61,933 bases of DNA, from positions 1-61,933 of IMG/VR virus record IMGVR_UViG_3300007508_000433. One strand, given 5' to 3'. The position numbers and the translations under genes are program-made. This stretch comes from a virus (lineage: Duplodnaviria; Caudoviricetes). This document shows, piece by piece, positions 1-59,984 of this stretch (positions are counted from its first letter, which is position 1; the number at the start of each line of letters is the position of its first letter). The notes under the pieces are model-generated. The model had not been told where the DNA came from. It worked only from the letters and a program-made list of their open reading frames with translations, and made no database searches.

Positions 1-606
1 TACGCCATGTGGGATGCCAGTGAAGAGAAGTTGATCCTTGAAGGGACCAACGGAGCCACCGTCTTGGACATCACTGACGGCAACGTGGTCATCGCAGACG
101 GCACTCTCACCGTTGGGTCGGATGGCGCTGGAGAGGACGTAGTTTTCTATTCAGCGACCGCGGGGGACAATCTCACATGGTCGTCCGCTTCGGAATGTCT
201 GACCATCACTGGCACCAATGGTCAAGACGCCTTAGCGGTGGCCGACGGCGACGTTTCGATCACCGACAAACTCACCGTCACCGGCCAGATTGTCACTCAT
301 CTGACTGTCGAAACCGAATCGGGTACGACCCACGCCCCGGCCCTTGGGGACGAGAACAAATACATTCTCACCACGCACGGCACCGGTATTACCGTCACGC
401 TGCCACAGGACTCTGCTCAGGCTTTTGCGATTGGTACGACTATCTACTATGAGCGCAACGGGGCGGGAACGCTTACCTTCGCGGCTGGCACCGGCGCGAC
501 CATAACGTCGAAAGACGACACCAAAACCTGTGCCGACAGGTACACGACCGTCGCTGCCGTCAAAATAGGCACCAATGCGTGGAGCCTGATCGGGAACATC
601 GGCTGA
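1..606 (+). CDS. Virion fibre/decoration-type structural protein, probably 5'-truncated by the window
   Basis: Frame open from base 1; T/G/D-rich beta repeats; C-terminal 'ITVTLP..FAIGT..GAGTLTF..GATI..W.LIG' motif typical of phage fibre proteins. Confidence 0.6.
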   Translation, partial: YAMWDASEEKLILEGTNGATVLDITDGNVVIADGTLTVGSDGAGEDVVFYSATAGDNLTWSSASECLTITGTNGQDALAVADGDVSITDKLTVTGQIVTHLTVETESGTTHAPALGDENKYILTTHGTGITVTLPQDSAQAFAIGTTIYYERNGAGTLTFAAGTGATITSKDDTKTCADRYTTVAAVKIGTNAWSLIGNIG

Positions 607-1808
607 TGTCCATGCTCCTTTCCGCAGTCGCCGGACAGGGCGGCGTCAAGGTCCCCGGCGCTCCGGGCACTCTCAGCCTGTCGGCGGGTAGCCCTGCCCA
701 TAGCGCCATCAACCTGTCATGGTCGGCACCGTCCGACACGGGCGGCGGGACGATCAGCGGCTACAAGACCCAGATCTCAACCAACGGATCGTCATGGTCC
801 GACGAGGTTGCCAACACCGGCTCGACCGCTACGACGTACAGCGACACCGGCCTGTCGGCCAGCACCACCTACTACTACCGGGTGGCGGCAATCAACGAGA
901 AGGGCGCTGGCGCCTACGGCAACGAGCCGAGCCTCGCCACTGGCGCAGACCCGGCAGTCGCTTGGTCGGCCACGGGTTCGTACACCAACGGGACCGACGG
1001 CTCCTACTCATGGGTCAGGTGGACGAGTAGCGGCACGTTCGTCATTACGTCGAACACGACCAGCAAGACGTTCGACCAGCACATCACCGCTGGCGGGGGC
1101 GGCGGTTGTGGCTATGACGGCGGCCACGGTGGAGGCGGCGGCGGCGGTTCCAAACAGTTCACCAGTCAGACGATGGCTAACGGCACACACACCATCACGA
1201 TTGGTGCCGGAGGTGCCGGTAGTAACAACGCCAACACCGGCACCGATGGCAGCGACTCTGTGTGTGGCAGTAACTCCACCGAAGGCGGGGGCGGGGGCGG
1301 TAGCGGTCCCGGTAATGACGGCGGTTCTGGTGGCGGCGGCGGCGACCAAGGCGGAGGCATCCAGTCCGGCGGCTCCGGTAATGCCGGTGAAGGCAACGAC
1401 GGCGGAAACGGACAGTCCGGGTACTACCCCATCGCGAACGGGGGCGGCGGTGGAGGCGGTGCTGGCGCTGCCGGTGGAACGGGTTCCTCCGCTGATGGCG
1501 GCATCGGGACCACGATGACGTACACCAGCAGCGACTACGAGGTCGCTGGCGGCGGCGGATCGGGTTACCGGGACTGGTGGGGCAATTGGTACACGAAGAA
1601 GGGCGGAGGCAGCGACGGGAACGGCACCGGTAACGACACGACGAACACTGCCAACCAAAAGTACGGCGCCGGAAACTTTGCCCAGACCACCAACCCGTAT
1701 GGCGGGACGAACACGGGCGGCGGTGGTGGCTGCCACGGCAGGTACAACACCAGCCTCTACGGCGGAACCGGTGGCTCCGGCGTGGTCGAACTGCGCTGGC
1801 TCACCTAG
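606..1808 (+). CDS. Fibronectin type III + glycine-rich domain virion protein
   Basis: TGATG overlap start; FN3 motifs (LSWSAPSDTGG..YKTQ..YSDTGL..YYYRVAAIN); glycine-rich block ending GGSGVVELRW. Confidence 0.8.
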   Translation: MSMLLSAVAGQGGVKVPGAPGTLSLSAGSPAHSAINLSWSAPSDTGGGTISGYKTQISTNGSSWSDEVANTGSTATTYSDTGLSASTTYYYRVAAINEKGAGAYGNEPSLATGADPAVAWSATGSYTNGTDGSYSWVRWTSSGTFVITSNTTSKTFDQHITAGGGGGCGYDGGHGGGGGGGSKQFTSQTMANGTHTITIGAGGAGSNNANTGTDGSDSVCGSNSTEGGGGGGSGPGNDGGSGGGGGDQGGGIQSGGSGNAGEGNDGGNGQSGYYPIANGGGGGGGAGAAGGTGSSADGGIGTTMTYTSSDYEVAGGGGSGYRDWWGNWYTKKGGGSDGNGTGNDTTNTANQKYGAGNFAQTTNPYGGTNTGGGGGCHGRYNTSLYGGTGGSGVVELRWLT

Positions 1809-1816
1809 GAGGACTC

Positions 1817-2335
1817 ATGGCGCACTTCGCAGAAATCGGTTCCGACAACATCGTCCTACGGGTTCTCGCTGTCCCAAACGACGAGGAACACCGTGGGCAG
1901 GAGTACCTAGCCGACGACCTCGGCCTCGGCGGCACATGGATTCAGACCTCGTACTGGACACATGGAGGCGTCCACTACGGCGAGGACGGAGAACCTGACG
2001 GCGGCAACCCGCTCCACTTGAACTTCGCAGGCATCGGTCACTCATGGGATGGCACGGGCTTCAAAGCCCCACAGCCCTACCCGTCGTGGGTTCTGAGTGA
2101 CGGCTACGAGTGGGAGCCGCCCACCCCCCGCACAAACGATGGCTACATCTGGGACGAGGACTCGACCTCATGGGTCAAGCCTGACAGTCCGTACCCGTCA
2201 TGGATCTGGAACGACGAGCATGGAATGTGGCAGCCGCCCCTTCCGTACCCCGGCGTGTTCACCGAAGACGGCCCGCAGACACCGTTCTACGAGTGGGACG
2301 AGGACACGACCTCATGGGTTGAGGTCGGAACTTGA
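1817..2335 (+). CDS. Conserved phage protein (MAHFAE family, Trp/Pro repeats), usual partner of glycine-rich fibre genes
   Basis: AGGAGG RBS; MAHFAEI..NIVLRV N-terminus; two PYPSW..WDE...SW repeats. Confidence 0.7.
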   Translation: MAHFAEIGSDNIVLRVLAVPNDEEHRGQEYLADDLGLGGTWIQTSYWTHGGVHYGEDGEPDGGNPLHLNFAGIGHSWDGTGFKAPQPYPSWVLSDGYEWEPPTPRTNDGYIWDEDSTSWVKPDSPYPSWIWNDEHGMWQPPLPYPGVFTEDGPQTPFYEWDEDTTSWVEVGT

Positions 2336-2358
2336 AGAATCTAAGGTAAGGAGCAACT

Positions 2359-2497
2359 ATGGCTACTGCATACCCCGCAACCGTTCCCGTCGTGGAGTTT
2401 GAATGAAGAAAGTATGTGGGAGGCTCCCGTCCCCAATCCAGAAGATGGCAGGGTATGGGATGAACCCTCGCAGTCGTGGGTGGAGCGGACTCCCTAG
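2359..2497 (+). pseudogene. Frameshifted/relic paralog of the C-terminal repeat of 1817..2335
   Basis: AAGGAG-ATG gives MATAYP; the +1 frame reads PQPFPSWSLNEESMWEAPVPNPEDGRVWDEPSQSWVERTP*, matching PQPYPSWVLSDGYEWEPPTPRTNDGYIWDEDSTSWV upstream. Confidence 0.65.
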
Positions 2498-2505
2498 GTG
2501 GTGCT

Positions 2506-3306
2506 ATGAAAAATATTATTCATGAAAAATTTGAGGGTGATTGGCTTAACGGTTGGACTGGTAAGGCCCATAATGCCTATACGACTTCGAGTTCTCATGA
2601 TGGACAAACTGGGTTGAGGATTCTTTTCCGGCAGGGTTCTCATTATGGAAGCGATTTAAGGAAGGATATTGATCCTACCCGCCACATTAAGATGGGGTAT
2701 TGGGTTAGGGTTGCTTCTAATTGGAACAGCAATTCGACTGGGAAGTTTGTGGGGTTTGCCGATTTACGCTGGAAGGATGATCAGGGCAGGTCTTATGCTC
2801 ATGGTAATCGCAAGCCGGTTGATAATGGTTTCTCGTTTCGTACATGGTTTGGTAAGACTAAGAACGGGGAGCTTCCTTTGGGTATGTATGTTTATCATGC
2901 CGGTCAGAAGAAGGCTTGGGGTGATTCTATAAAGGTGGGTTCTATTAAGGTTGGCCATCCGCACGCTTTTTTTCAGGTTGAAGCGGATTTGGATGCTGGT
3001 TTTGTCAAGTGCAGACTAGACAGCGGTGCATGGACGCAGCACGATATTTCTGTTGGTGATGAAACGGAGATTACTTTGGCTTGGTTGGATGGCTATTATG
3101 GCGGGTGGATGAAGTCTCCTTTCAATATGGCGATAGATATTGATTCATATAGATTGGATGACATGTCGGCTCCTGAGCCCCCGCCGGAACCGGTTGTTCC
3201 TGCAAGGCCTGATCCGATTGAGGATGTTAGAAACAATCCCGGCGATGAGTCGATTGCTAGCCGGTTGAGAAAGTTGGCGGATGAGGTTGAATCCCTAGAG
3301 CAATAG
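2506..3306 (+). CDS. Polysaccharide lyase (PL14-like)/beta-jelly-roll protein
   Basis: GKFVGF (cf. GKLPGL), FSFRTWF, MYVYH, YYGG and IDID motifs; Pro-rich linker. Confidence 0.5.
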   Translation: MKNIIHEKFEGDWLNGWTGKAHNAYTTSSSHDGQTGLRILFRQGSHYGSDLRKDIDPTRHIKMGYWVRVASNWNSNSTGKFVGFADLRWKDDQGRSYAHGNRKPVDNGFSFRTWFGKTKNGELPLGMYVYHAGQKKAWGDSIKVGSIKVGHPHAFFQVEADLDAGFVKCRLDSGAWTQHDISVGDETEITLAWLDGYYGGWMKSPFNMAIDIDSYRLDDMSAPEPPPEPVVPARPDPIEDVRNNPGDESIASRLRKLADEVESLEQ

Positions 3307-3339
3307 TGGTAGACTGTTCTATTGTAAGAAGGGATTCTG

Positions 3340-3672
3340 ATGGGCAGAGAGCTACCAACTGATTGCACCGATTGTGGCGGCGTTTTGTATTGGGGCGATT
3401 TTGGCCCGTTTAATGAGGGCATGCTGGGCACTATTTGTGTCTGTAACCCCAGATGGGTTAGTGTTAAAAGCAAGTTGCGGTTGCTAATTGAAATGTACAG
3501 GGATCACCATAGAGGGGTCGATATTTCTGAAAGGGATGAGGCCATCGAGGCGTTAGATTGGGTCATGAATGAGGTCTGGATGCTTCGTGCTGAGAATCGT
3601 GAGTTGCGTATTATGGGTTGGCTTCCTGTGAGAGATGTATCTGAAGAGATAGGAGATGATGGCTATGAGTGA
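3340..3672 (+). CDS. Hypothetical protein with Cys pairs
   Basis: ORF with CxxC..CxC; overlaps next gene. Confidence 0.55.
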   Translation: MGRELPTDCTDCGGVLYWGDFGPFNEGMLGTICVCNPRWVSVKSKLRLLIEMYRDHHRGVDISERDEAIEALDWVMNEVWMLRAENRELRIMGWLPVRDVSEEIGDDGYE

Positions 3673-3817
3673 TAATTTGAATCCTACGGCAGAGGAGATC
3701 TTTGCTGAGTTGAACAACACCCCCGAGGGTAAGGTTCAGTTGGAGCTGGCTGCTTTGCGTGTTCTTGTCGCTAAGCAGCAGTTGAAGTTGGCTGAGCAGG
3801 AAGAAGAGAATGAGTGA
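3665..3817 (+). CDS. Small hypothetical protein (50 aa)
   Basis: MSDNLNPTAEEIF...EEENE; coupled to both neighbours; below ORF-track cutoff. Confidence 0.6.
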   Translation: MSDNLNPTAEEIFAELNNTPEGKVQLELAALRVLVAKQQLKLAEQEEENE

Positions 3818-4521
3818 TGATTCCTGTCACTGGTTCTAATGTTGATCTAAGCTTGTTGCATCCTCGTTTTAAGTTGCGGTTGGATGCTTTTTTTGCTGAT
3901 GCTCGCATTAAGGGACGGGTTTCTGTGGTTTCTGCCTGCAGGACGTATGCTCAGCAGAAGTGGTTTTATGACCGCTATAAGTCTGGTAGGGGGAATCTTG
4001 CTGCTAATCCTGATTGGAATCGCCCGGATGGGTTTTTTAAGGGAAGTTTCCATCAGGTGCAAGATGATGGTTTTTGTTATGCTGTGGACTTTAGGCTTAT
4101 TGGTGGCGGGTTGAAGCAGTGGGAGGTCAGCAATATAGCCAAGTCTTATGGTCTTTATCCTACTGTTGAAAGCGAGTGGTGGCACCATCAGCCTAGAGAT
4201 GGCGACGATTGGTTTGATGCTCCTTTGGTGGTTGAGGACAAGTGTGCTACTCGTGAATATAAGGTTGATTGGGCGGGGGTTTTTGAGTACCTGAATGATC
4301 TTGAAAAACAGGTTAAAGAGTCACCGATTCGCATTAAGGAACGGTCAGACCGCGTGAAGTGCCTTCAGAGCCGTTTAGGGGCCGCTGGGCACGATGCTGG
4401 CATCCCTGATGGTATCTTTGGCCGGAAAACTCGGAAGGCCGTCAGATCGCTTCAGAGGGCGTCTGGGCTGAAATCTGATGGGGTGGTTGGTCCTAATACT
4501 TGGAAGGCGCTCTGGTTGTAG
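3817..4521 (+). CDS. Endolysin: M15-family peptidase + C-terminal peptidoglycan-binding domain
   Basis: RTYAQQ, SFH..AVD and EWWH zinc-peptidase motifs; DGIFGRKT..AV..LQ..DGVVGPNTW PG_binding_1 motif. Confidence 0.9.
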   Translation: MIPVTGSNVDLSLLHPRFKLRLDAFFADARIKGRVSVVSACRTYAQQKWFYDRYKSGRGNLAANPDWNRPDGFFKGSFHQVQDDGFCYAVDFRLIGGGLKQWEVSNIAKSYGLYPTVESEWWHHQPRDGDDWFDAPLVVEDKCATREYKVDWAGVFEYLNDLEKQVKESPIRIKERSDRVKCLQSRLGAAGHDAGIPDGIFGRKTRKAVRSLQRASGLKSDGVVGPNTWKALWL

Positions 4522-4632
4522 ATGGGTGGCCGGCATTCTCTTATTCAGAGAAAGCTATTTTTGTGGAGCATCATCCCAGCCACTGTCATTATTTGTCTCT
4601 GGATTTATGATCTTGTTACTGCTATCATGTAG
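4522..4632 (+). CDS. Small single-TM membrane peptide (36 aa), possible lysis accessory
   Basis: MGGRHSLIQRKLFLWSIIPATVIICLWIYDLVTAIM directly after the endolysin stop. Confidence 0.45.
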   Translation: MGGRHSLIQRKLFLWSIIPATVIICLWIYDLVTAIM

Positions 4633-4647
4633 GTGTGGGGTGATTTT

Positions 4648-5394
4648 ATGAGTGATGATGAATCCCTTTCTGATGAAGAAAGAAACGCTAATGTTGCTAA
4701 GGCTGAAGCTGAAGCTAAGAAGGCTGCTGCTGAGGCCGAGAAGGCTTTGGCTGAGGCTCGTAAAGCAAATGCTGAGGCGGATCAGGCTGAGTTGAGTGTT
4801 CGTTTAGAGCACATTGAGGTTGATCAGGCTGAGAATGCTGCTGATAATCGTGCTGCTGGTGATGAGTTTCACCATATTTACCGGTTTGTTGGCGGTGTTG
4901 ATGGTGGCAGTGTTGAGAGGTGTATGAAGAAGTTGACTCAATGGTCTCGCCTCGATCCGGGGTGTGATATTGAGGTCATATTTTATTCTCCGGGTGGCGC
5001 TGTAATCTCCGGGCTTGCATTGTTCGATTATATAAGGTCTCTTGCGAATCAAGGGCATCGTATAACAACAGGTGCTACTGGTATGGCTGCGAGTATGGGC
5101 AGCATCCTTGTTCAGGCCGGTGATCATAGATGGATGTCTGCTGAGGCTTGGTATATGATTCATAGGGCCGCTTTTGGTGCGGCAGGAAAAACTTTTGAGA
5201 TCGAAGATGAAGTTGAGTGGGTTAAGAGGATCGAGAGAAGAATTATCGCTATCTTTTGTGCTAATTCTAAGCTGACTCCTCAAAAGATTAAGAGGAACTG
5301 GCATCGTAAAGATTGGTGGTTGGATGCAGACGAGTGTCTTTCTATTGGGCTGGTCGATGAGATAAGAGGCGGGTTTAGTGAAGGTATGGATTGA
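4648..5394 (+). CDS. clpP: ClpP-family serine protease with N-terminal coiled coil
   Basis: FYSPGG, AASMGS (Ser), MIH (His), DWWLDADE (Asp). Confidence 0.85.
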   Translation: MSDDESLSDEERNANVAKAEAEAKKAAAEAEKALAEARKANAEADQAELSVRLEHIEVDQAENAADNRAAGDEFHHIYRFVGGVDGGSVERCMKKLTQWSRLDPGCDIEVIFYSPGGAVISGLALFDYIRSLANQGHRITTGATGMAASMGSILVQAGDHRWMSAEAWYMIHRAAFGAAGKTFEIEDEVEWVKRIERRIIAIFCANSKLTPQKIKRNWHRKDWWLDADECLSIGLVDEIRGGFSEGMD

Positions 5395-38810: not shown

Positions 38811-38976
38811 TGATTGTCCACGTTGTAGCGATGAGGGTATCATTGTGTACCTTGAAGGAGCGGAGGAGGAGTCGTATAGGATAGTCGTTCCTTGGACTCT
38901 CATTGAGGAGACTATCTCCACGTTCGTCAGGGAGGCCGTAGAGGGCGCGAGTGAAGGTCCCTCCGATGAGTCGTGA
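38803..38976 (+). CDS. Small hypothetical protein (57 aa)
   Basis: MIDDCPRC...; overlaps both neighbours. Confidence 0.5.
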   Translation: MIDDCPRCSDEGIIVYLEGAEEESYRIVVPWTLIEETISTFVREAVEGASEGPSDES

Positions 38977-39976
38977 GTATCTTAGTTTTGATGATGTCTT
39001 AATTGAGCCTCAGCATTCTGCTGTGCGTAGCCGGAGTGATGTTAGCCTTAAGACAAAACTGTATGATGGGTTTGAGTTGGATCTCCCCATTATTGCTTCT
39101 AATATGGATACTGTGTGTGAGTTGGATATGGCGATTGCGATGTCTGAGCTTGGCGGCTTGGGTGTGATTCATCGCAACTTGATTCATGCCACGCGTATTC
39201 ATTGTATACGCCAGTTAACGAGCATGGGTTTGGCTTCTGCTGTGGCTATGGGTGTTAACGAATTGCGTCTTTCTCCTGTGAGGCGGTATATTGAGGAGGG
39301 TGTCCGGTACATTGTGTTGGATATTGCTCATGGAGATTCTGTTCATGCTTTAAAGGCTGTGGAACAATTGAGGAGCATGTCTGATAAGCACGGCGGGGCT
39401 GTTTGTATCATTGGTGGCAATGTGGCTACTCCTGATGCTGTTGGCCGTATGGCTGATGCTGGTGCTCATTGTGTCAAGGTGGGGATCGGCCCGGGCGCAG
39501 CATGCTTGACGAGGATTAACACAGGGGTGGGTATACCTCAGCTGTCTGCCATTCTTGAGTGTTCTCATGCCGCAGATTTGCATGGCGTGGGGTGTATTGC
39601 TGATGGTGGTATGAAGACTCCGGGTGATATTGCTAAGGCTTTGGCTGCTGGTGCCGATGCTGTAATGCTTGGTGGAATGTTGGCTGGCACGTTTGAGTCT
39701 CCGGGTGATGTTGTGGATATTGATGGCGAAAAGTTTAAAACTTACCGAGGAATGGCATCGAATGGTGCGGGATCCATGTATATTGAGGGTGCTGAGGGTT
39801 TTGTTAAGTATAGCGGCAAGGCTGGGGATGTAGTAAACGATATTTCTGACGGTTTGCGTAGCGCTTTTTCATATGTTGGGGCTAGTGACATGGCCGAGTA
39901 CCACTCAAAAGCCCTTTTTGTGCGCATTTCTACGGCATCTATCCTCGAAAACGGCGCTCACGGTACTATTACATGA
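38966..39976 (+). CDS. IMP dehydrogenase/GMP reductase family protein, CBS-less
   Basis: FDDVL; SNMDTV; GGLGVIHRN; DIAHG; [13 protein letters not shown]; IADGG; YRGMAS; GLRS..SYVG. Confidence 0.9.
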
Positions 39977-42071: not shown

Positions 42072-43802
42072 ATGAGTGAATTCTATGGTCTAAACGTTGA
42101 GTTTGATGATCTTGATAAACTTTTAAGCCATGAGGAACTTGACATGGAGCCTGTTCCTCTTGACGTATTTGTAAGTGATCGTAAATACCTTGGTCTACCG
42201 CCATTGTCTGACATCCAAACTGAGATTGTTAAGATGAGTACGCAGGTATTTAATGTGGAAACGTTGAAGAAGCTTCATGGCGATAAGGAAGGGCAGCGTA
42301 TATATGATACATACACTCAAAACGAGGTAATCTGCCAACTTGGCAAGGGTTCTGGCAAGGACCATTGTGCTAGGATAACAATGGCCTACACCATCTATCT
42401 TATGCATTGTCTACGAGATCCTCTTGGGTACTATGGTAAAGCAACTGGTGTGTATATTGATCTCCTGAACCTAGCTGTGAACGCACAGCAGGCTCAGAGG
42501 GTATTTTTTGAACCATTTAAGAACCTCCTTCTCTCGTCTCCGTGGTTCAACGAACAGGGCTTCGAACCAAGGGTATCAGAAATTTTCTTCTTTTCACGCC
42601 CCGTGCGCTGTTTTTCTGGTCACTCTGAGTCAGAGGGGTGGGAGGGGTATGAGGTAATGACTATCATCTTGGATGAGATCTCAGCCTTTAAGACAGACTC
42701 TGAGCTGAAAGGTGATGTCAGATCTAAGGGCTCTGCGTCTGCCATTTACAACATGAGTAAGTTGTCTGTGATGTCTCGCTTCCCTGAGGTCGGTAAAACT
42801 ATCCTGTTGTCCTTCCCCCGTTATCGAGGAGACTTTATTCAACAGAGGTATGATTCTTCTATAGCTTTAGATGAGCCTAAGACATGGGCTATCAAGGCTG
42901 CTACTTGGGAGGTTAATCCCACGATTGAGCGCGAGCAGTTGGAGTCAGAATATATCCGCAATCCAATTGAGGCTAGAGCAAGGTTTGAATGTGAGCCTCC
43001 ACATATGGAGGATGCATTCTTTAGGGATGCGGATTTGGTTAGGAATGCTTTCAACTTTGCTGAGGACCCCATAGAAGAAGATGGCTCATTCAAGTCTTGG
43101 TTTAATGGCAGTGATGATTTTACTAGGTTCATTCATGTCGATCTAGCTGTCAAGCGTGATCGTGCTGCATTGTCTATGGTGCACTGTCCCGGCATGAAGA
43201 GTATTAACACTGGCCTTGGAACTGAGCAACTTCCGGTGCTTAATGTAGACTTGGTTTATTCATGGCAAGCACAGCCGGGTGCAGAGATTAACTTTAGTCA
43301 GATCAGAGCGATGATAGTGGACTTGTGTAGGAGATTCTCTGTCGCCATTGTAAGCTTTGATCAATGGCAGTCGGTAGAGATGATTCAGTCCCTGCGCGCA
43401 ATGGGTATTAATGCAGACTTTCATAGCGTCAAAAAGACAGACTACGATACGCTGATGACGGCTATCTATGATAAGAGATTGCGGGGGTATTGGAATGAGA
43501 TCCTAGTTGAGGATGAACTATTGAAGCTTAAACTGCTCCGTGGTAACAAGATTGATCACCCTTCATCTGGTTCTAAAGATCTTGCTGATGCTGTTGCCGG
43601 GGCCGTGTTTCAGTCTGTGCAACACATGCAGATAGATCAAGAGGTTGAGATTGAGTTTGAGACATTCTCTCATGAGCTGTACGAAGATGAAGAAGATTCT
43701 GCGGAACATAGGGTTAAGAAGAACCTAACCGAGGATAGAAGCGAGTCTGAGATAGACGCTGGGATGCCAGATGAGATCCAATCTTGGCTTGACCTTGTTT
43801 AA
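42072..43802 (+). CDS. terL: Terminase large subunit
   Basis: LGKGSGKD; ILDE; HVDLA; SFDQWQS; IDHP..GSKDLADA. Confidence 0.88.
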   Translation: MSEFYGLNVEFDDLDKLLSHEELDMEPVPLDVFVSDRKYLGLPPLSDIQTEIVKMSTQVFNVETLKKLHGDKEGQRIYDTYTQNEVICQLGKGSGKDHCARITMAYTIYLMHCLRDPLGYYGKATGVYIDLLNLAVNAQQAQRVFFEPFKNLLLSSPWFNEQGFEPRVSEIFFFSRPVRCFSGHSESEGWEGYEVMTIILDEISAFKTDSELKGDVRSKGSASAIYNMSKLSVMSRFPEVGKTILLSFPRYRGDFIQQRYDSSIALDEPKTWAIKAATWEVNPTIEREQLESEYIRNPIEARARFECEPPHMEDAFFRDADLVRNAFNFAEDPIEEDGSFKSWFNGSDDFTRFIHVDLAVKRDRAALSMVHCPGMKSINTGLGTEQLPVLNVDLVYSWQAQPGAEINFSQIRAMIVDLCRRFSVAIVSFDQWQSVEMIQSLRAMGINADFHSVKKTDYDTLMTAIYDKRLRGYWNEILVEDELLKLKLLRGNKIDHPSSGSKDLADAVAGAVFQSVQHMQIDQEVEIEFETFSHELYEDEEDSAEHRVKKNLTEDRSESEIDAGMPDEIQSWLDLV

Positions 43803-47578: not shown

Positions 47579-47848
47579 ATGAATAACGAAGCCATTAGGG
47601 TTTGTGCTGAGATAGCATATTCTACTGAGAGTGGCGCTGTCCATTCCGACGTTTGTCCACCCGGACATTTGTTTGAGAATATCGACAGCGAGGAGCGTAA
47701 GCTGTTGCATCAGTTTTTGGATGAATGGCTGAACGAATCTGGCGGCACTGGTTGTTTCTTTGTGGGTGATAGTGACTACTATCGCTTTATTCCTGATCAG
47801 AGCATTATTCCTGCGTTGGCGAAACTAATAGATCGGAGTAGATGGTGA
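47579..47848 (+). CDS. Hypothetical protein
   Basis: ORF with RBS. Confidence 0.55.
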   Translation: MNNEAIRVCAEIAYSTESGAVHSDVCPPGHLFENIDSEERKLLHQFLDEWLNESGGTGCFFVGDSDYYRFIPDQSIIPALAKLIDRSRW

Positions 47849-49389
47849 GTTATATTAAGATAACTAACACTACATCAAGCGTGCCCAGATTGTATCTGGA
47901 GATTCTTGGTGTATCGACCAAGCGTGACAGCGACATTACTATCGGCCAGTTTGGTTCTGGTACAAAGTTTGCTCCTATTTACGCTTTGCGTGAGGGGTTG
48001 GAGTGGATTAATACTGGCTTTGATAGTCATGGTGGTTACACTATGTCGTATCAGGTTTCTGATGATAATGATGAAGGCCTGGATCTGGTCGAGTTTGTCT
48101 ATGAAGATATGGACGGACATATAACAAAAAAGCCTTCATCTTATTCTTTGGGTGCTGGCGAACTTGGATGGAATCATCCCTTCCAGATATTCCGTGAGGC
48201 TTTTGCTAACGCTCTGGATGCTCACTATGAGTTTGACGAAGGCTATTCTATTGACAGGGTTGATGAGATTGAACCTCCTGTTGAGGGTGAGTTTTCTGTT
48301 TACCTTACTGCTTCTGATGGTCTTATTGAAGTTGTTGATAACTTTGATAAGTATTTCTCCTTGGAGCGCACTCCTCTCTTTGAGGATAGCAGGGGGAACA
48401 AGGTTTATGAAAAGCTAATGTCTGTGCCTTATGATGGTGTTAGAATCTACCATAAGGGTGTTCTTGTTTATGGTGGAGAGCTTGAGCATGACGATACCCC
48501 TTCATTGTTTGATTATGATTTGAAGGAAGTTAGCCTTAATGAGGAGCGTCGTTTGAGTGATGTTTCTGCTAACGAGATATATACCATTGCTAAGATTATC
48601 GGTGAGAATGAGCATTACACTAACAGCACTGGAATAAGGCCGGTTGTTGATAGTATCATTGACAACTGCAATGAAAGTGAGAGCGGTAAGCCTGACGGCG
48701 TGTGGGAGTACAACTTTTCTTACGCTTTCAGGATGCAGCATTGGTATGATGTTCAGCCTCAAGATAGCGATTCATTCGGTAATCAGTTTGTGGCTGCGAT
48801 GACAGCCAAGTATTGTGATGAGACATATAGCGATATTGCATTTGTTAGCGATAGAGCTGCGGCATTCTATGAGATTGAGATTAATTTGAATGAGCGTGGG
48901 CGTAAAGCTATACCAGTTTCTGACTCTATGTATGAACTTCTAAACACTACTGGTGCTAAGGAGTGGATGGATAAAAACATACTTGGCGAAGAGTATGACA
49001 CTCCCTTTGTTGAGTTGGATGGTATTGATCTTGAGGTGTTTAACTTTGCATATGAGAGTGTCGCTGAATATGACACTGACATATTGAACATCCCCGTAAA
49101 GATTATGCAAAGCACAGCTTACAATACCGGTATTCAGGGTAAGGCTATGAATGTGCATGACGACAGCAAAAGAACTGTTATTGCTTTGAGTCAGGCATTG
49201 ATTGAAGGTCGGAATATGCAGCAAATTATTGCTACTATGCTACATGAACTTGATCATGCTGTTACTGGTGCTGCAGATAACACTAGGGCTTTCCGCGACG
49301 CTGCAGATAATCGCCTAGGTGATCTAATCATCAGGCACTACTGTAGCAAGGTGGATTTGGCTAAACTAGTTAACAAGACGGAGGTGTAA
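47842..49389 (+). CDS. GHKL-like ATPase fused to C-terminal HExxH metallopeptidase-like domain
   Basis: G.STKR..IGQFGSGTK; REAFANALD; LHELDH. Confidence 0.65.
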   Translation: MVSYIKITNTTSSVPRLYLEILGVSTKRDSDITIGQFGSGTKFAPIYALREGLEWINTGFDSHGGYTMSYQVSDDNDEGLDLVEFVYEDMDGHITKKPSSYSLGAGELGWNHPFQIFREAFANALDAHYEFDEGYSIDRVDEIEPPVEGEFSVYLTASDGLIEVVDNFDKYFSLERTPLFEDSRGNKVYEKLMSVPYDGVRIYHKGVLVYGGELEHDDTPSLFDYDLKEVSLNEERRLSDVSANEIYTIAKIIGENEHYTNSTGIRPVVDSIIDNCNESESGKPDGVWEYNFSYAFRMQHWYDVQPQDSDSFGNQFVAAMTAKYCDETYSDIAFVSDRAAAFYEIEINLNERGRKAIPVSDSMYELLNTTGAKEWMDKNILGEEYDTPFVELDGIDLEVFNFAYESVAEYDTDILNIPVKIMQSTAYNTGIQGKAMNVHDDSKRTVIALSQALIEGRNMQQIIATMLHELDHAVTGAADNTRAFRDAADNRLGDLIIRHYCSKVDLAKLVNKTEV

Positions 49390-49394
49390 CTGCT

Positions 49395-49610
49395 ATGACA
49401 GATATGTCGTTTCAAGCAACGTATATTGTTTCTGATGAAATTGTTGATCAGATACGCTTATCGTTAGAGCACATATGGTGGGCTGCTCCAGAAGATATCC
49501 CTGAGGATAATGAGAAGGCCGTACAGTTCTGGGTTGATGTGGTCTTGGATTCAACTATTGACAATGAACATGAAGTCCTACTAGATATGGATGAGGTGGA
49601 CTATGAATGA
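49395..49610 (+). CDS. Acidic hypothetical protein
   Basis: GGAGG RBS. Confidence 0.55.
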   Translation: MTDMSFQATYIVSDEIVDQIRLSLEHIWWAAPEDIPEDNEKAVQFWVDVVLDSTIDNEHEVLLDMDEVDYE

Positions 49611-50049
49611 AGTAGTGTTTGATTCTGATACCAACTATTTTTGTGATCGTTGTGGTAAAATAACTAAGAGTATGTTCCCAGAACTTGGGCATAGTGCCCG
49701 GACTCAGATTAAGGCCGGGTTGCACATCGAGGTCATTGGTTATTATGGTGGCTTCTATGACACTTATCTGGATGATGGACCTGATGTTATTCACTTCTGC
49801 CACGATTGTTCTCTATGGTTTGCTAGAGAGGTTGGCGCCATTTCTGAAAGAAGCAAGGGCGGTCATCCTTGCGACAGCGAGTCGGAGCGGTGTTGCGAGT
49901 ATGCGTGGTCTCCAGAAGAAGAGACTATGGAGATACTTAGCGATCCTGAATGGATGAAGTCCTTGGCCGAGGCTCAGGAGGATGTTGATTCTGGTAATCT
50001 GGTAGATTTCAAAGATATTGAAACATCGACAATGAACCGGGAGGTTTGA
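49603..50049 (+). CDS. Zn-binding protein with C-terminal Phd/YefM-antitoxin-like segment
   Basis: CDRC..GYYGGF.D..CHDC; tail EETMEILSDPEWMKSLAEAQEDVDSGNLV. Confidence 0.6.
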   Translation: MNEVVFDSDTNYFCDRCGKITKSMFPELGHSARTQIKAGLHIEVIGYYGGFYDTYLDDGPDVIHFCHDCSLWFAREVGAISERSKGGHPCDSESERCCEYAWSPEEETMEILSDPEWMKSLAEAQEDVDSGNLVDFKDIETSTMNREV

Positions 50050-59410: not shown

Positions 59411-59611
59411 ATGTCGATTCACGTATCACATAGAGATTTGTCTGCTATGGAGGATGAAATAGTGGCCAAGATGGATGATGTAATGAATCTTCCCGGCAGC
59501 AAGTATCAGTACGTTATGCATAAGTATGGTGGATGCATTAGTTGCTGGGAGCAAATTAATGACGCTCTAGACAATATCTATGCAAAGATAAGGGGCAATC
59601 ATGGAAAATGA
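59411..59611 (+). CDS. Hypothetical protein
   Basis: AGGAG RBS. Confidence 0.5.
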   Translation: MSIHVSHRDLSAMEDEIVAKMDDVMNLPGSKYQYVMHKYGGCISCWEQINDALDNIYAKIRGNHGK

Positions 59612-59984
59612 TATGGAGATAGGTGTTTTTGTTGAAGTTGGCATGGACATGGAGTGGCGAAGGCGTGCTTCCTGTAGGGGTTTGGATACGGATGCTTTCT
59701 TTCCCGGCAGAGGAGAGTCTCTTGCTGCTTTGAAGAGTTATTGCAAGTTTTGCCCTGTTGTTAAGCCATGTCTTGAGTATGCATTTCGCTCTATGGAGAA
59801 GTTTGGTATTTGGGGTGGGACTTCTGAAAAGGAGCGGCGCAAGGTGAGAAGTCTTATGCAGCGCAATAGGGAGTCAGGAAGAAAGATGTCTTTGACAGAA
59901 ATGTTGCGCACCTTGGGTGTCAACTATACACACATAGATGATGACAAGCTTGAATCTTTTACCGGAGAAGCCCCCTACTGTTAG
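59601..59984 (+). CDS. whiB: WhiB-family transcription factor
   Basis: W..RASC..D.FFP; CKFCPV..PCL; GIWGGTSEKERR. Confidence 0.92.
   Translation: MENDMEIGVFVEVGMDMEWRRRASCRGLDTDAFFPGRGESLAALKSYCKFCPVVKPCLEYAFRSMEKFGIWGGTSEKERRKVRSLMQRNRESGRKMSLTEMLRTLGVNYTHIDDDKLESFTGEAPYC

Follow-up and report, generated by a model that had tools for sequence, protein, structure and literature searches.

The fusion gene and its product

The 61,933-nucleotide (61.9-kb) IMG/VR virus record IMGVR_UViG_3300007508_000433 (Duplodnaviria; Caudoviricetes), which was analysed over its whole length and is referred to here as the window, carries a short gene whose 148-residue product, P0001, is by its sequence a chimera. 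It joins an uncharacterised, presumably Zn-binding phage domain to the C-terminal toxin-neutralising module, and to that module only, of RelB/YefM-type antitoxins. The gene and the parts of its product are as follows.

49603..50049, + strand: gene for fusion protein P0001 (148 residues; stop codon at 50047-50049 included)
49603..49908, + strand: Cys/His-rich N-terminal domain (N-domain), residues 1-102, delimited by the alignment of relatives
49909..50025, + strand: grafted C-terminal module, residues 103-141, supported by PDB search, hidden Markov models (HMMs), hhalign and shuffles
50026..50046, + strand: last seven residues, STMNREV, outside the aligned module and little conserved

The start is placed at the ATG at 49603; initiation at an alternative in-frame ATG, 49591, would lengthen the protein by four residues. 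An earlier note on this DNA had quoted the tail peptide EEETMEILSDPEWMKSLAEAQEDVDSGNLVDFKDI as the end of the protein; this peptide lies where it was placed (residues 105-139, nucleotides 49915-50019), but a further nine residues, ETSTMNREV, follow it up to nucleotide 50046. The tail carries the motif E107-T108-x-E-I-L-S-D-P-E116, followed by M118, L121, E123, D127, G131 and V134.

An AlphaFold2 (AF2) model of P0001 has a mean predicted local distance difference test score (pLDDT) of 88.5. Tail helices are predicted at residues 104-112 and 115-129, with a break at D114-P115, and a further helix at 136-144 extends beyond the span of the module; pLDDT is 87-91 for the tail helices and 59 for residues 141-148. 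Only two of the seven residues of the final STMNREV match those of the orthologue P0002, a 148-residue protein, 68% identical to P0001, encoded on the syntenic marine metagenome contig L156.

Homology of the C-terminal module to antitoxins

The earlier note had likened the tail to the C-termini of Phd/YefM-RelB antitoxins and had proposed that it be searched alone. Such a search of all PDB sequences does find an antitoxin: the single match is to residues 52-84 of the YefM-fold, RelB-type antitoxin Rv2865 (E 0.78, 12/33 identities), which is suggestive and not significant. Profile comparisons, which are significant, bear the resemblance out. With an HMM of the full module, built from 107 antitoxin C-modules, P0001 scored 48.7 bits (E 3.3e-14) and P0002 21.5 bits (E 1e-5), and the next best of 1093 sequences reached 5.3 bits. 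About five of the 107 sequences are chance matches and can only weaken the HMM. The set was, however, gathered with the motif of P0001 itself, and because of this circularity three motif-independent tests were used.

The tail of P0002 (ETNLILNDEE) lacks the exact motif, and P0002 reached its 21.5 bits all the same. An HMM restricted to the positions after the motif, run against whole proteins, gave 18.0 bits (E 1.6e-4) for P0002 and 15.9 bits (E 6.8e-4) for P0001, with 6.2 bits for the next best sequence. Residues 117-148 excised from the two tails scored 19.0 and 19.7 bits with this HMM, and none of 2000 shuffles of either excised tail attained the real score (maxima 6.2 and 9.0). When the nine closest N-domain proteins were compared, profile to profile, with 67 antitoxins, hhalign (Prob 90.2, E 1.5e-6) paired residues 106-141 of P0001 with antitoxin residues 50-85.

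By sequence comparison, residues 103-141 are thus homologous to the C-terminal segment through which RelB/YefM-type antitoxins bind RelE toxins. Among known proteins these include M. tuberculosis RelB1 (Rv1247c, 9G12) and RelB2 (Rv2865, 3G5O) of family PF02604, with whose toxin-wrapping C-terminus the segment aligns. Common to them and P0001 is an ET.E(I/V)L..P motif followed by M..(I/L).E...D...G..V. The earlier note's term, antitoxin mimic, captures a likeness that is real, although 'homologous fragment' describes it better.

A resemblance arising by chance, or from the composition of an acidic helical tail, would fit the lack of any curated family match, the E value of 0.78 in the tail-alone PDB search, and the fact that the only Pfam match is sub-threshold. 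Neither tail's score was attained by any shuffle, however; the two tails are the sole matches among the 1093 sequences, the L156 orthologue is the sole match among 4738 open reading frames (ORFs) from related loci, and the hhalign E value is 1.5e-6, so that we regard chance as extremely improbable. The Pfam match is to an unrelated helical 'DP' domain, STI1-HOP_DP (E 0.003-0.025; 14.9-17.9 bits, cut-off 29.1), and we discounted it as a likeness between helical 'DP' stretches that arose by chance.

The module in cellular genomes

DNA encoding ET.EILSDPE was scanned for in bacterial and archaeal genomes, one for each species. At least 120 stretches were found, against about 7 expected by chance according to our own information-content estimate. 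The ORFs that carry them are mostly 72-117 residues long, and the motif lies 35-45 residues ahead of the C-terminus. After exclusion of one 15-residue ORF, 119 were put through Pfam, with 61 matching PhdYeFM_antitox, 25 DUF7557 and 24 VAPB_antitox; the last two groups are archaeal and largely overlap. A dozen or so large, unrelated proteins bearing the motif are taken as chance matches.

An ORF of at least 60 residues lies downstream at 100 of the 120 motif loci, and in Pfam these 100 ORFs gave 74 matches to ParE_toxin (PF05016), 36 to ParE-like, 19 to Gp49 and 15 to YoeB. A cleaned set of 57 downstream toxins matches Rv2866/RelE2 (3g5o_B, 3e-25), RelE1 (9g12_A, 8e-23), archaeal RelE and E. 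coli RelE, and 67 of the motif antitoxins match RelB (9g12_C, 4e-21), Rv2865 (1.5e-19) and E. coli YefM (3e-11). From the matches on both sides, the motif is a marker for the C-terminal region of the antitoxins that pair with RelE-family toxins.

In cells the module is borne by at least three kinds of N-terminal head, namely Phd/YefM, archaeal DUF7557/VapB-like, and short Bathyarchaeota proteins. The Bathyarchaeota proteins are 72-75 residues long and have no Pfam head, and two 141-residue Latescibacteria proteins (loci L026 and L035) carry the module on yet another N-terminus. The module had been described as an actinobacterial one, which it is not specifically: for the 80 motif loci listed, a count by title gives 26 from actinobacteria, 29 from archaea and 25 from bacteria of other groups.

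The N-terminal domain

HMMER, run with P0001 as the query over the full set of 1.84 billion representative proteins, gave 102 proteins at E<=1e-3, all of which align to residues 1 to about 124 and which are 54-178 residues long. Two further relatives came from a word-indexed protein search, giving a set of 104. C66 and C69 are invariant across the 104 aligned sequences, and C14, C17, G39, G46, Y48, F51, D53, H67, H88, C97 and C98 are each kept in at least 90% of them. The family pattern CxxC ... G(Y/H)YGGFxD ... CHDC ... GGHP ... CCE(Y/F)AW is present in P0001. These Cys and His positions bear out the Cys-rich domain that had been read from the single sequence, and the near-invariant pattern is the reason for which residues 1-102 are presumably a Zn-binding domain.

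Its sequence relatives place the domain in a protein family that has no name and is mostly viral. Its closest ESM-Atlas clusters are unnamed and 70-89% viral, and it has no family in Pfam, NCBIfam or PHROGs. The best BFVD match is an uncharacterised Caudovirales protein (E 4.8e-4), and a protein of Gordonia phage Kenna follows at 2.3e-3. A tblastn search with P0001 and a megablast search with 10 kb gave zero matches among 50,697 phage records.

No fold could be assigned. Foldseek of the domain against the PDB gave a best E of 0.21, and a wide VIA search with the full P0001 model (best Z 4.0) placed nearly all of its rows on the tail helices. For P0003, a relative without the tail (AF2 mean pLDDT 87.7), the best match in the wide VIA search was a B-box at Z 2.9 (root-mean-square deviation 2.2 over 40 residues), with zinc fingers of the RING, PARP and GATA types no more than 1 Z behind. 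Neither Foldseek against the PDB nor the wide VIA search matched the N-domain to a DNA-binding fold.

A lineage-specific graft

A tail of the ET.(E/L)IL type is present in two of the 104 N-domain proteins, P0001 and P0002. The others either end shortly past CCE(Y/F)AW or bear unrelated tails, many of them of a 'G.W' type. The module HMM matches P0001 and P0002, and the next best family member has an E value of 1.2. The earlier note's reading would have failed had the tail been an integral part of all homologues of the N-domain; it is not integral, and its attachment to this domain is lineage-specific.

Related viral loci tell the same story. A single-protein query with P0001 found none among viral contigs, whereas an alignment-based search found 34 IMG/VR loci with N-domain relatives. 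In a set of 4738 six-frame ORFs from these loci and L156, the sole match to the module HMM is the L156 protein, and at none of the 34 loci does the module occur within about 4 kb of the N-domain relative. The tail of P0005 (…PVEAIVHSQPDLNDVMRRGEE…) was considered as a decayed copy of the module and dropped, with an E value of 88 against the module HMM.

Searches for other fused forms were less sensitive. A DNA scan of IMG/VR for the exact motif gave three stretches, all in proteins that by eye are unlike the module, although so narrow a probe would also have passed over P0002. Two word-indexed searches with the tail each returned only the query and are too insensitive to gauge how rare fused forms are. 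There was no tail-only match at E<=0.001 among the representative proteins, as is expected for some 35 residues against 1.8 billion proteins.

The variety of tails in this family would also allow a broader role, in which the Zn domain is a conserved viral platform whose exchangeable C-terminal peptides, here RelB-derived, serve as targeting handles for host defence proteins. We consider this quite improbable. If it were true, RelE-type toxins would be not only masked but also handed to an activity of the Zn domain (sequestration, degradation or a signal telling the phage that abortive infection has set in), and the variable tails found across the family of 104 would make up a library of such handles.

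Conservation of the locus and a second headless antitoxin

Contig L156 is syntenic with the window from 42 to 55 kb, with protein identities of 37-92%, and has the same gene order around the fusion gene: a 71-residue ORF, the fusion gene, a basic ORF and a TacA-like gene. In the window the neighbours of the fusion gene are as follows.

49395..49610, + strand: acidic 71-residue ORF upstream, whose stop overlaps the start of the P0001 gene; kept in L156
50052..50246, + strand: basic 64-residue ORF downstream, beginning 3 nucleotides past the P0001 stop; not RelE-like; kept in L156
50856..51014, + strand: 52-residue headless TacA (DUF1778) antitoxin gene, about 800 bp downstream; Pfam TacA1

Between P0001 and its L156 orthologue, 76 of 102 residues of the N-domain are identical and its synonymous sites are saturated. 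In the tail, 22 of 39 residues are identical, with 0.35 nonsynonymous substitutions per site (dN), about 1.0 synonymous ones (dS) and a dN/dS of about 0.33, which is a rough figure because dS is near saturation. This fits a tail kept under purifying selection. The residues common to both phage tails are those conserved in the antitoxin family (E-T, I-L, D, M, L, E, D and G).

The 52-residue gene matches Pfam TacA1 with 31.7 bits (cut-off 21; E 1.5e-7) over positions 43-76 only of the 80-position profile. Its PDB matches are 9ilr_B (a 42-residue DUF1778 peptide, E 0.004), residues 51-91 of the 92 of 7f37_C, and 7ak8_G, a 'TacA1 antitoxin peptide'; 9ilr_B and 7ak8_G are C-terminal peptides that were crystallised alone. 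The TacT-binding tail is present in this gene and the N-terminal half is absent. The L156 orthologue has 47 residues and is 66% identical, and no GNAT toxin is seen near the gene in the window. Counting the tail of P0001, the locus therefore has antitoxin tails of two unrelated families, each lacking its head and its toxin.

This second fragment bears on the possibility that the module of P0001 was co-opted as an oligomerisation or docking element, or binds some partner other than a toxin, and has no part in countering toxin-antitoxin systems. The C-terminal extensions vary widely within the N-domain family, so that the tails may tune that family's own function. The tail also models as a generic helical hairpin, like many unrelated helical pairs at Z<=4.0, and we infer toxin binding from sequence. 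However, the positions kept between the two tails are the antitoxin-family ones, including the Glu that touches the toxin's catalytic Arg in RelBE1, and an adjoining headless fragment of an unrelated antitoxin family is not easily accounted for unless toxin-antitoxin systems are involved. Co-option therefore seems to us unlikely, though it is the main rival to the reading favoured below, ahead of a phage-borne toxin-antitoxin pair.

Directly upstream of this cassette is a gene for a 515-residue protein (47842-49389, + strand) with a HELDH motif close to its C-terminus. Its matches to SprT/WLM metalloproteases are weak (E 0.003-0.01) and under the cut-off. The protein belongs to PHROG 8203, which has no annotated function, and is 70% identical in L156.

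Absence of a head and of a toxin

The earlier note had stated that neither a Phd/YefM head nor a RelE/ParE toxin is present, and within the window this is confirmed. PF02604 has no match at E<=10 in P0001 or anywhere else in the 61.9 kb, PF05016 has none at E<=10, and the best match of a RelE-type HMM over the window has an E value of 3.8. Pfam analysis of the 60 ORFs at 35-62 kb gave no toxin family among the 25 families listed out of 27. No cognate toxin is found in the window or in the 12.4 kb of L156, whose ORFs either match the window or are small and unannotated; both are partial genomes. The basic 64-residue ORF was considered as a toxin and rejected, as it has no toxin-family match in Pfam, PADLOC, NCBIfam or PHROGs and is not found with the RelE HMM.

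P0001 therefore cannot be counted as a whole-protein member of PF02604. It has the C-terminal toxin-binding segment of that family, but another Cys/His-rich family takes the place of the N-terminal Phd/YefM fold and there is no adjacent gene for a cognate toxin (RelE, YoeB, ParE or Doc). Sharing the module without the head or the partner, it may act in an antitoxin-like manner. It is virus-encoded and, in its tail, homologous to a cellular antitoxin.

An N-terminal domain followed by a C-terminal toxin-binding tail is nevertheless the layout of a type II antitoxin, and in cells the same tail occurs on at least three different heads. P0001 could then serve as the antitoxin in an addiction or toxin-antitoxin module that the phage itself carries. 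The Zn domain would replace the DNA-binding head, and the toxin would be either unsequenced, the record being only about 59% complete, or the basic ORF, which begins 3 nucleotides past the stop and is kept in L156. Against this, toxin-antitoxin partners are normally adjacent, and no ORF in the window is RelE/ParE- or YoeB-like. The basic ORF has no toxin-family match and, at 64 residues, is short for a RelE fold, and the N-domain matches no DNA-binding fold. We regard such a module as improbable.

Predicted toxin binding by the tail

In the RelBE1 structure (PMC12620021), the N-terminal beta-sheet and helix a1 hold the RelB1 dimer together, and helices a2-a4 wrap RelE1. Helices a3 and a4 rest on hydrophobic patches of RelE1, salt bridges link RelB1 D44 and E50 to RelE1 R50 and R65, and a3 appears to push aside the toxin's own C-terminal helix. 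The conserved Glu of the 'ET' motif forms a salt bridge with a catalytic Arg of RelE in RelBE1. Chained alignments place RelB1 E50-T51 at E107-T108 of P0001, and the tail helices of the AF2 model would correspond to RelB1 a3 and a4.

A complex was modelled between residues 101-148 of P0001 and the 83-residue RelE-type toxin that adjoins the most similar antitoxin (locus L069). It scored 0.42 (runs of 0.42, 0.38 and 0.44), against 0.00 for the best of three controls, with contact agreement of at least 77% among runs and a partner pLDDT of at least 65. The mark for such models is attained by 58 of 80 solved complexes and by 2 of 110 mismatched pairs; among those attaining it with scores of 0.60 or below are only 7 of the 80 solved complexes, yet both of the passing mismatches. 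Because like complexes have already been solved, the pass may also reflect likeness or model memory. The model lends weak support to binding of a toxin by the tail, and we give it little weight.

The phage and its host

The record is estimated to be 59% complete, and essentially all of its long ORFs are on the plus strand. Two genes bear on the kind of phage and host.

42072-43802, + strand: terminase large subunit, 576 residues; closest counterparts, at 38-39% identity, in Streptomyces phages some 130 kb long
59601-59984, + strand: WhiB-family transcription factor gene (Pfam WhiB, E 8.9e-21; ORF picked by eye)

The terminase matches 408 phage records, among which are 127 of Streptomyces, 95 of Gordonia and 15 of Rhodococcus phages. 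WhiB proteins are typical of actinobacteria and their phages. Given the WhiB gene and the kinship of the terminase, the host is likely a marine actinobacterium. The terminase lies in the middle of the record and is followed by a long run of small unannotated genes, and the tail genes lie at 9-35 kb; from these positions the record is probably permuted or partial.

The GC content is 55% at positions 1-5000 of the window and 42-48% elsewhere. An IMPDH/GMP reductase-family gene at 38951-39976 (+ strand; Pfam IMPDH, E 2.4e-94; ORF picked by eye) is probably an auxiliary nucleotide-metabolism gene.

P0001 as a candidate counter-defence protein

The reading that we favour, with modest confidence, is that P0001 is a counter-defence protein directed against host toxin-antitoxin systems. 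The phage would make P0001 during infection, and the protein would bind host RelE-family RNase toxins released as the labile host antitoxins decay. The two tail helices would lie in the hydrophobic groove of the toxin, with E107 of the 'ET' motif paired with a catalytic Arg, and abortive infection that relies on toxin-antitoxin systems would thereby be blocked. Against a TacT-type acetyltransferase toxin, the headless TacA peptide would play the same part. The Zn domain may stabilise the tail, as the earlier note had supposed of its carrier domain.

Several points weigh against this reading. The tail matches no curated model in Pfam, NCBIfam, PHROGs or PADLOC, and the tests of homology that are free of circularity (the post-motif HMM and P0002) give weaker scores, at 16-21 bits. 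D44, the other salt-bridge residue of RelB1, maps ahead of the graft point and is not matched by any residue of P0001. Toxin binding is itself deduced, with the complex model adding weak support, and the tail helices might not be free for a toxin if they are packed on the N-domain. The gene lies downstream of the terminase and not in an obvious early anti-defence block. With 59% of the genome estimated to be in the record, a toxin gene may lie elsewhere.

Relation to known systems

P0001 differs from the RelB/YefM antitoxins in being encoded by a phage, in having a Zn-binding domain for a head and in lacking an adjacent toxin gene. Virus-encoded orphan antitoxins are already known. As described in PMC11065993, gp44 of SMV1, a viral Phd homologue, binds and neutralises the host Doc toxin, and viral antitoxins for RelE toxins are predicted there as well. 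Like P0001, gp44 is a virus-borne homologue of a host antitoxin without a toxin; it is, however, a stand-alone Phd whose target, Doc, was shown by experiment, whereas P0001 has the tail only, fused to another domain, with RelE as the target predicted from sequence.

The cyanophage S-CREM1 has annotated YefM, TacA and MazE antitoxins without toxins, which are proposed to counter host toxin-antitoxin systems (PMC9964418). As at the P0001 locus, YefM-type and TacA families occur together in one phage genome; the S-CREM1 antitoxins are known at the level of annotation, and the available text of that source does not state whether they are truncated or fused.

T4 Dmd, the pseudo-ToxI RNA of phiTE, the DarG-like AdfB and the NADAR-type orphan antitoxins are likewise replacement antitoxins supplied by a phage (PMC3475682, PMC11481870, PMC11825919). 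Their chemistry is unlike that of P0001, as they act through RNA mimicry, through enzymatic reversal of ADP-ribosylation or through an unrelated protein, and, as far as the available texts of these sources go, none is a peptide module excised from a type II antitoxin. Our literature search, mostly of titles and abstracts and without supplements, found no phage RelB/YefM-type C-module fused to another domain. To that extent, an antitoxin module that has lost its head and sits on a foreign domain is a new form of virus-encoded orphan antitoxin.

Implications

Orphan antitoxins encoded by phages are emerging as a class of counter-defence genes, and few cases concern the classical type II RNase toxins. 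If P0001 acts in this manner, the locus would show a phage trimming antitoxins down to the toxin-binding peptide, which is either grafted onto another domain or, as in the TacA fragment, expressed alone. It would also show that RelBE- and TacAT-type systems are probably anti-phage in a marine host that is probably an actinobacterium.

The RelB-type C-module appears as a mobile unit, its carriers here being Phd/YefM heads, archaeal DUF7557/VapB-like heads and a viral Zn domain. Antitoxin C-termini without their heads would offer a search rule for genes that counter toxin-antitoxin systems in viral dark matter, and the tail of P0001 may serve as a natural minimal peptide for work on RelE neutralisation.

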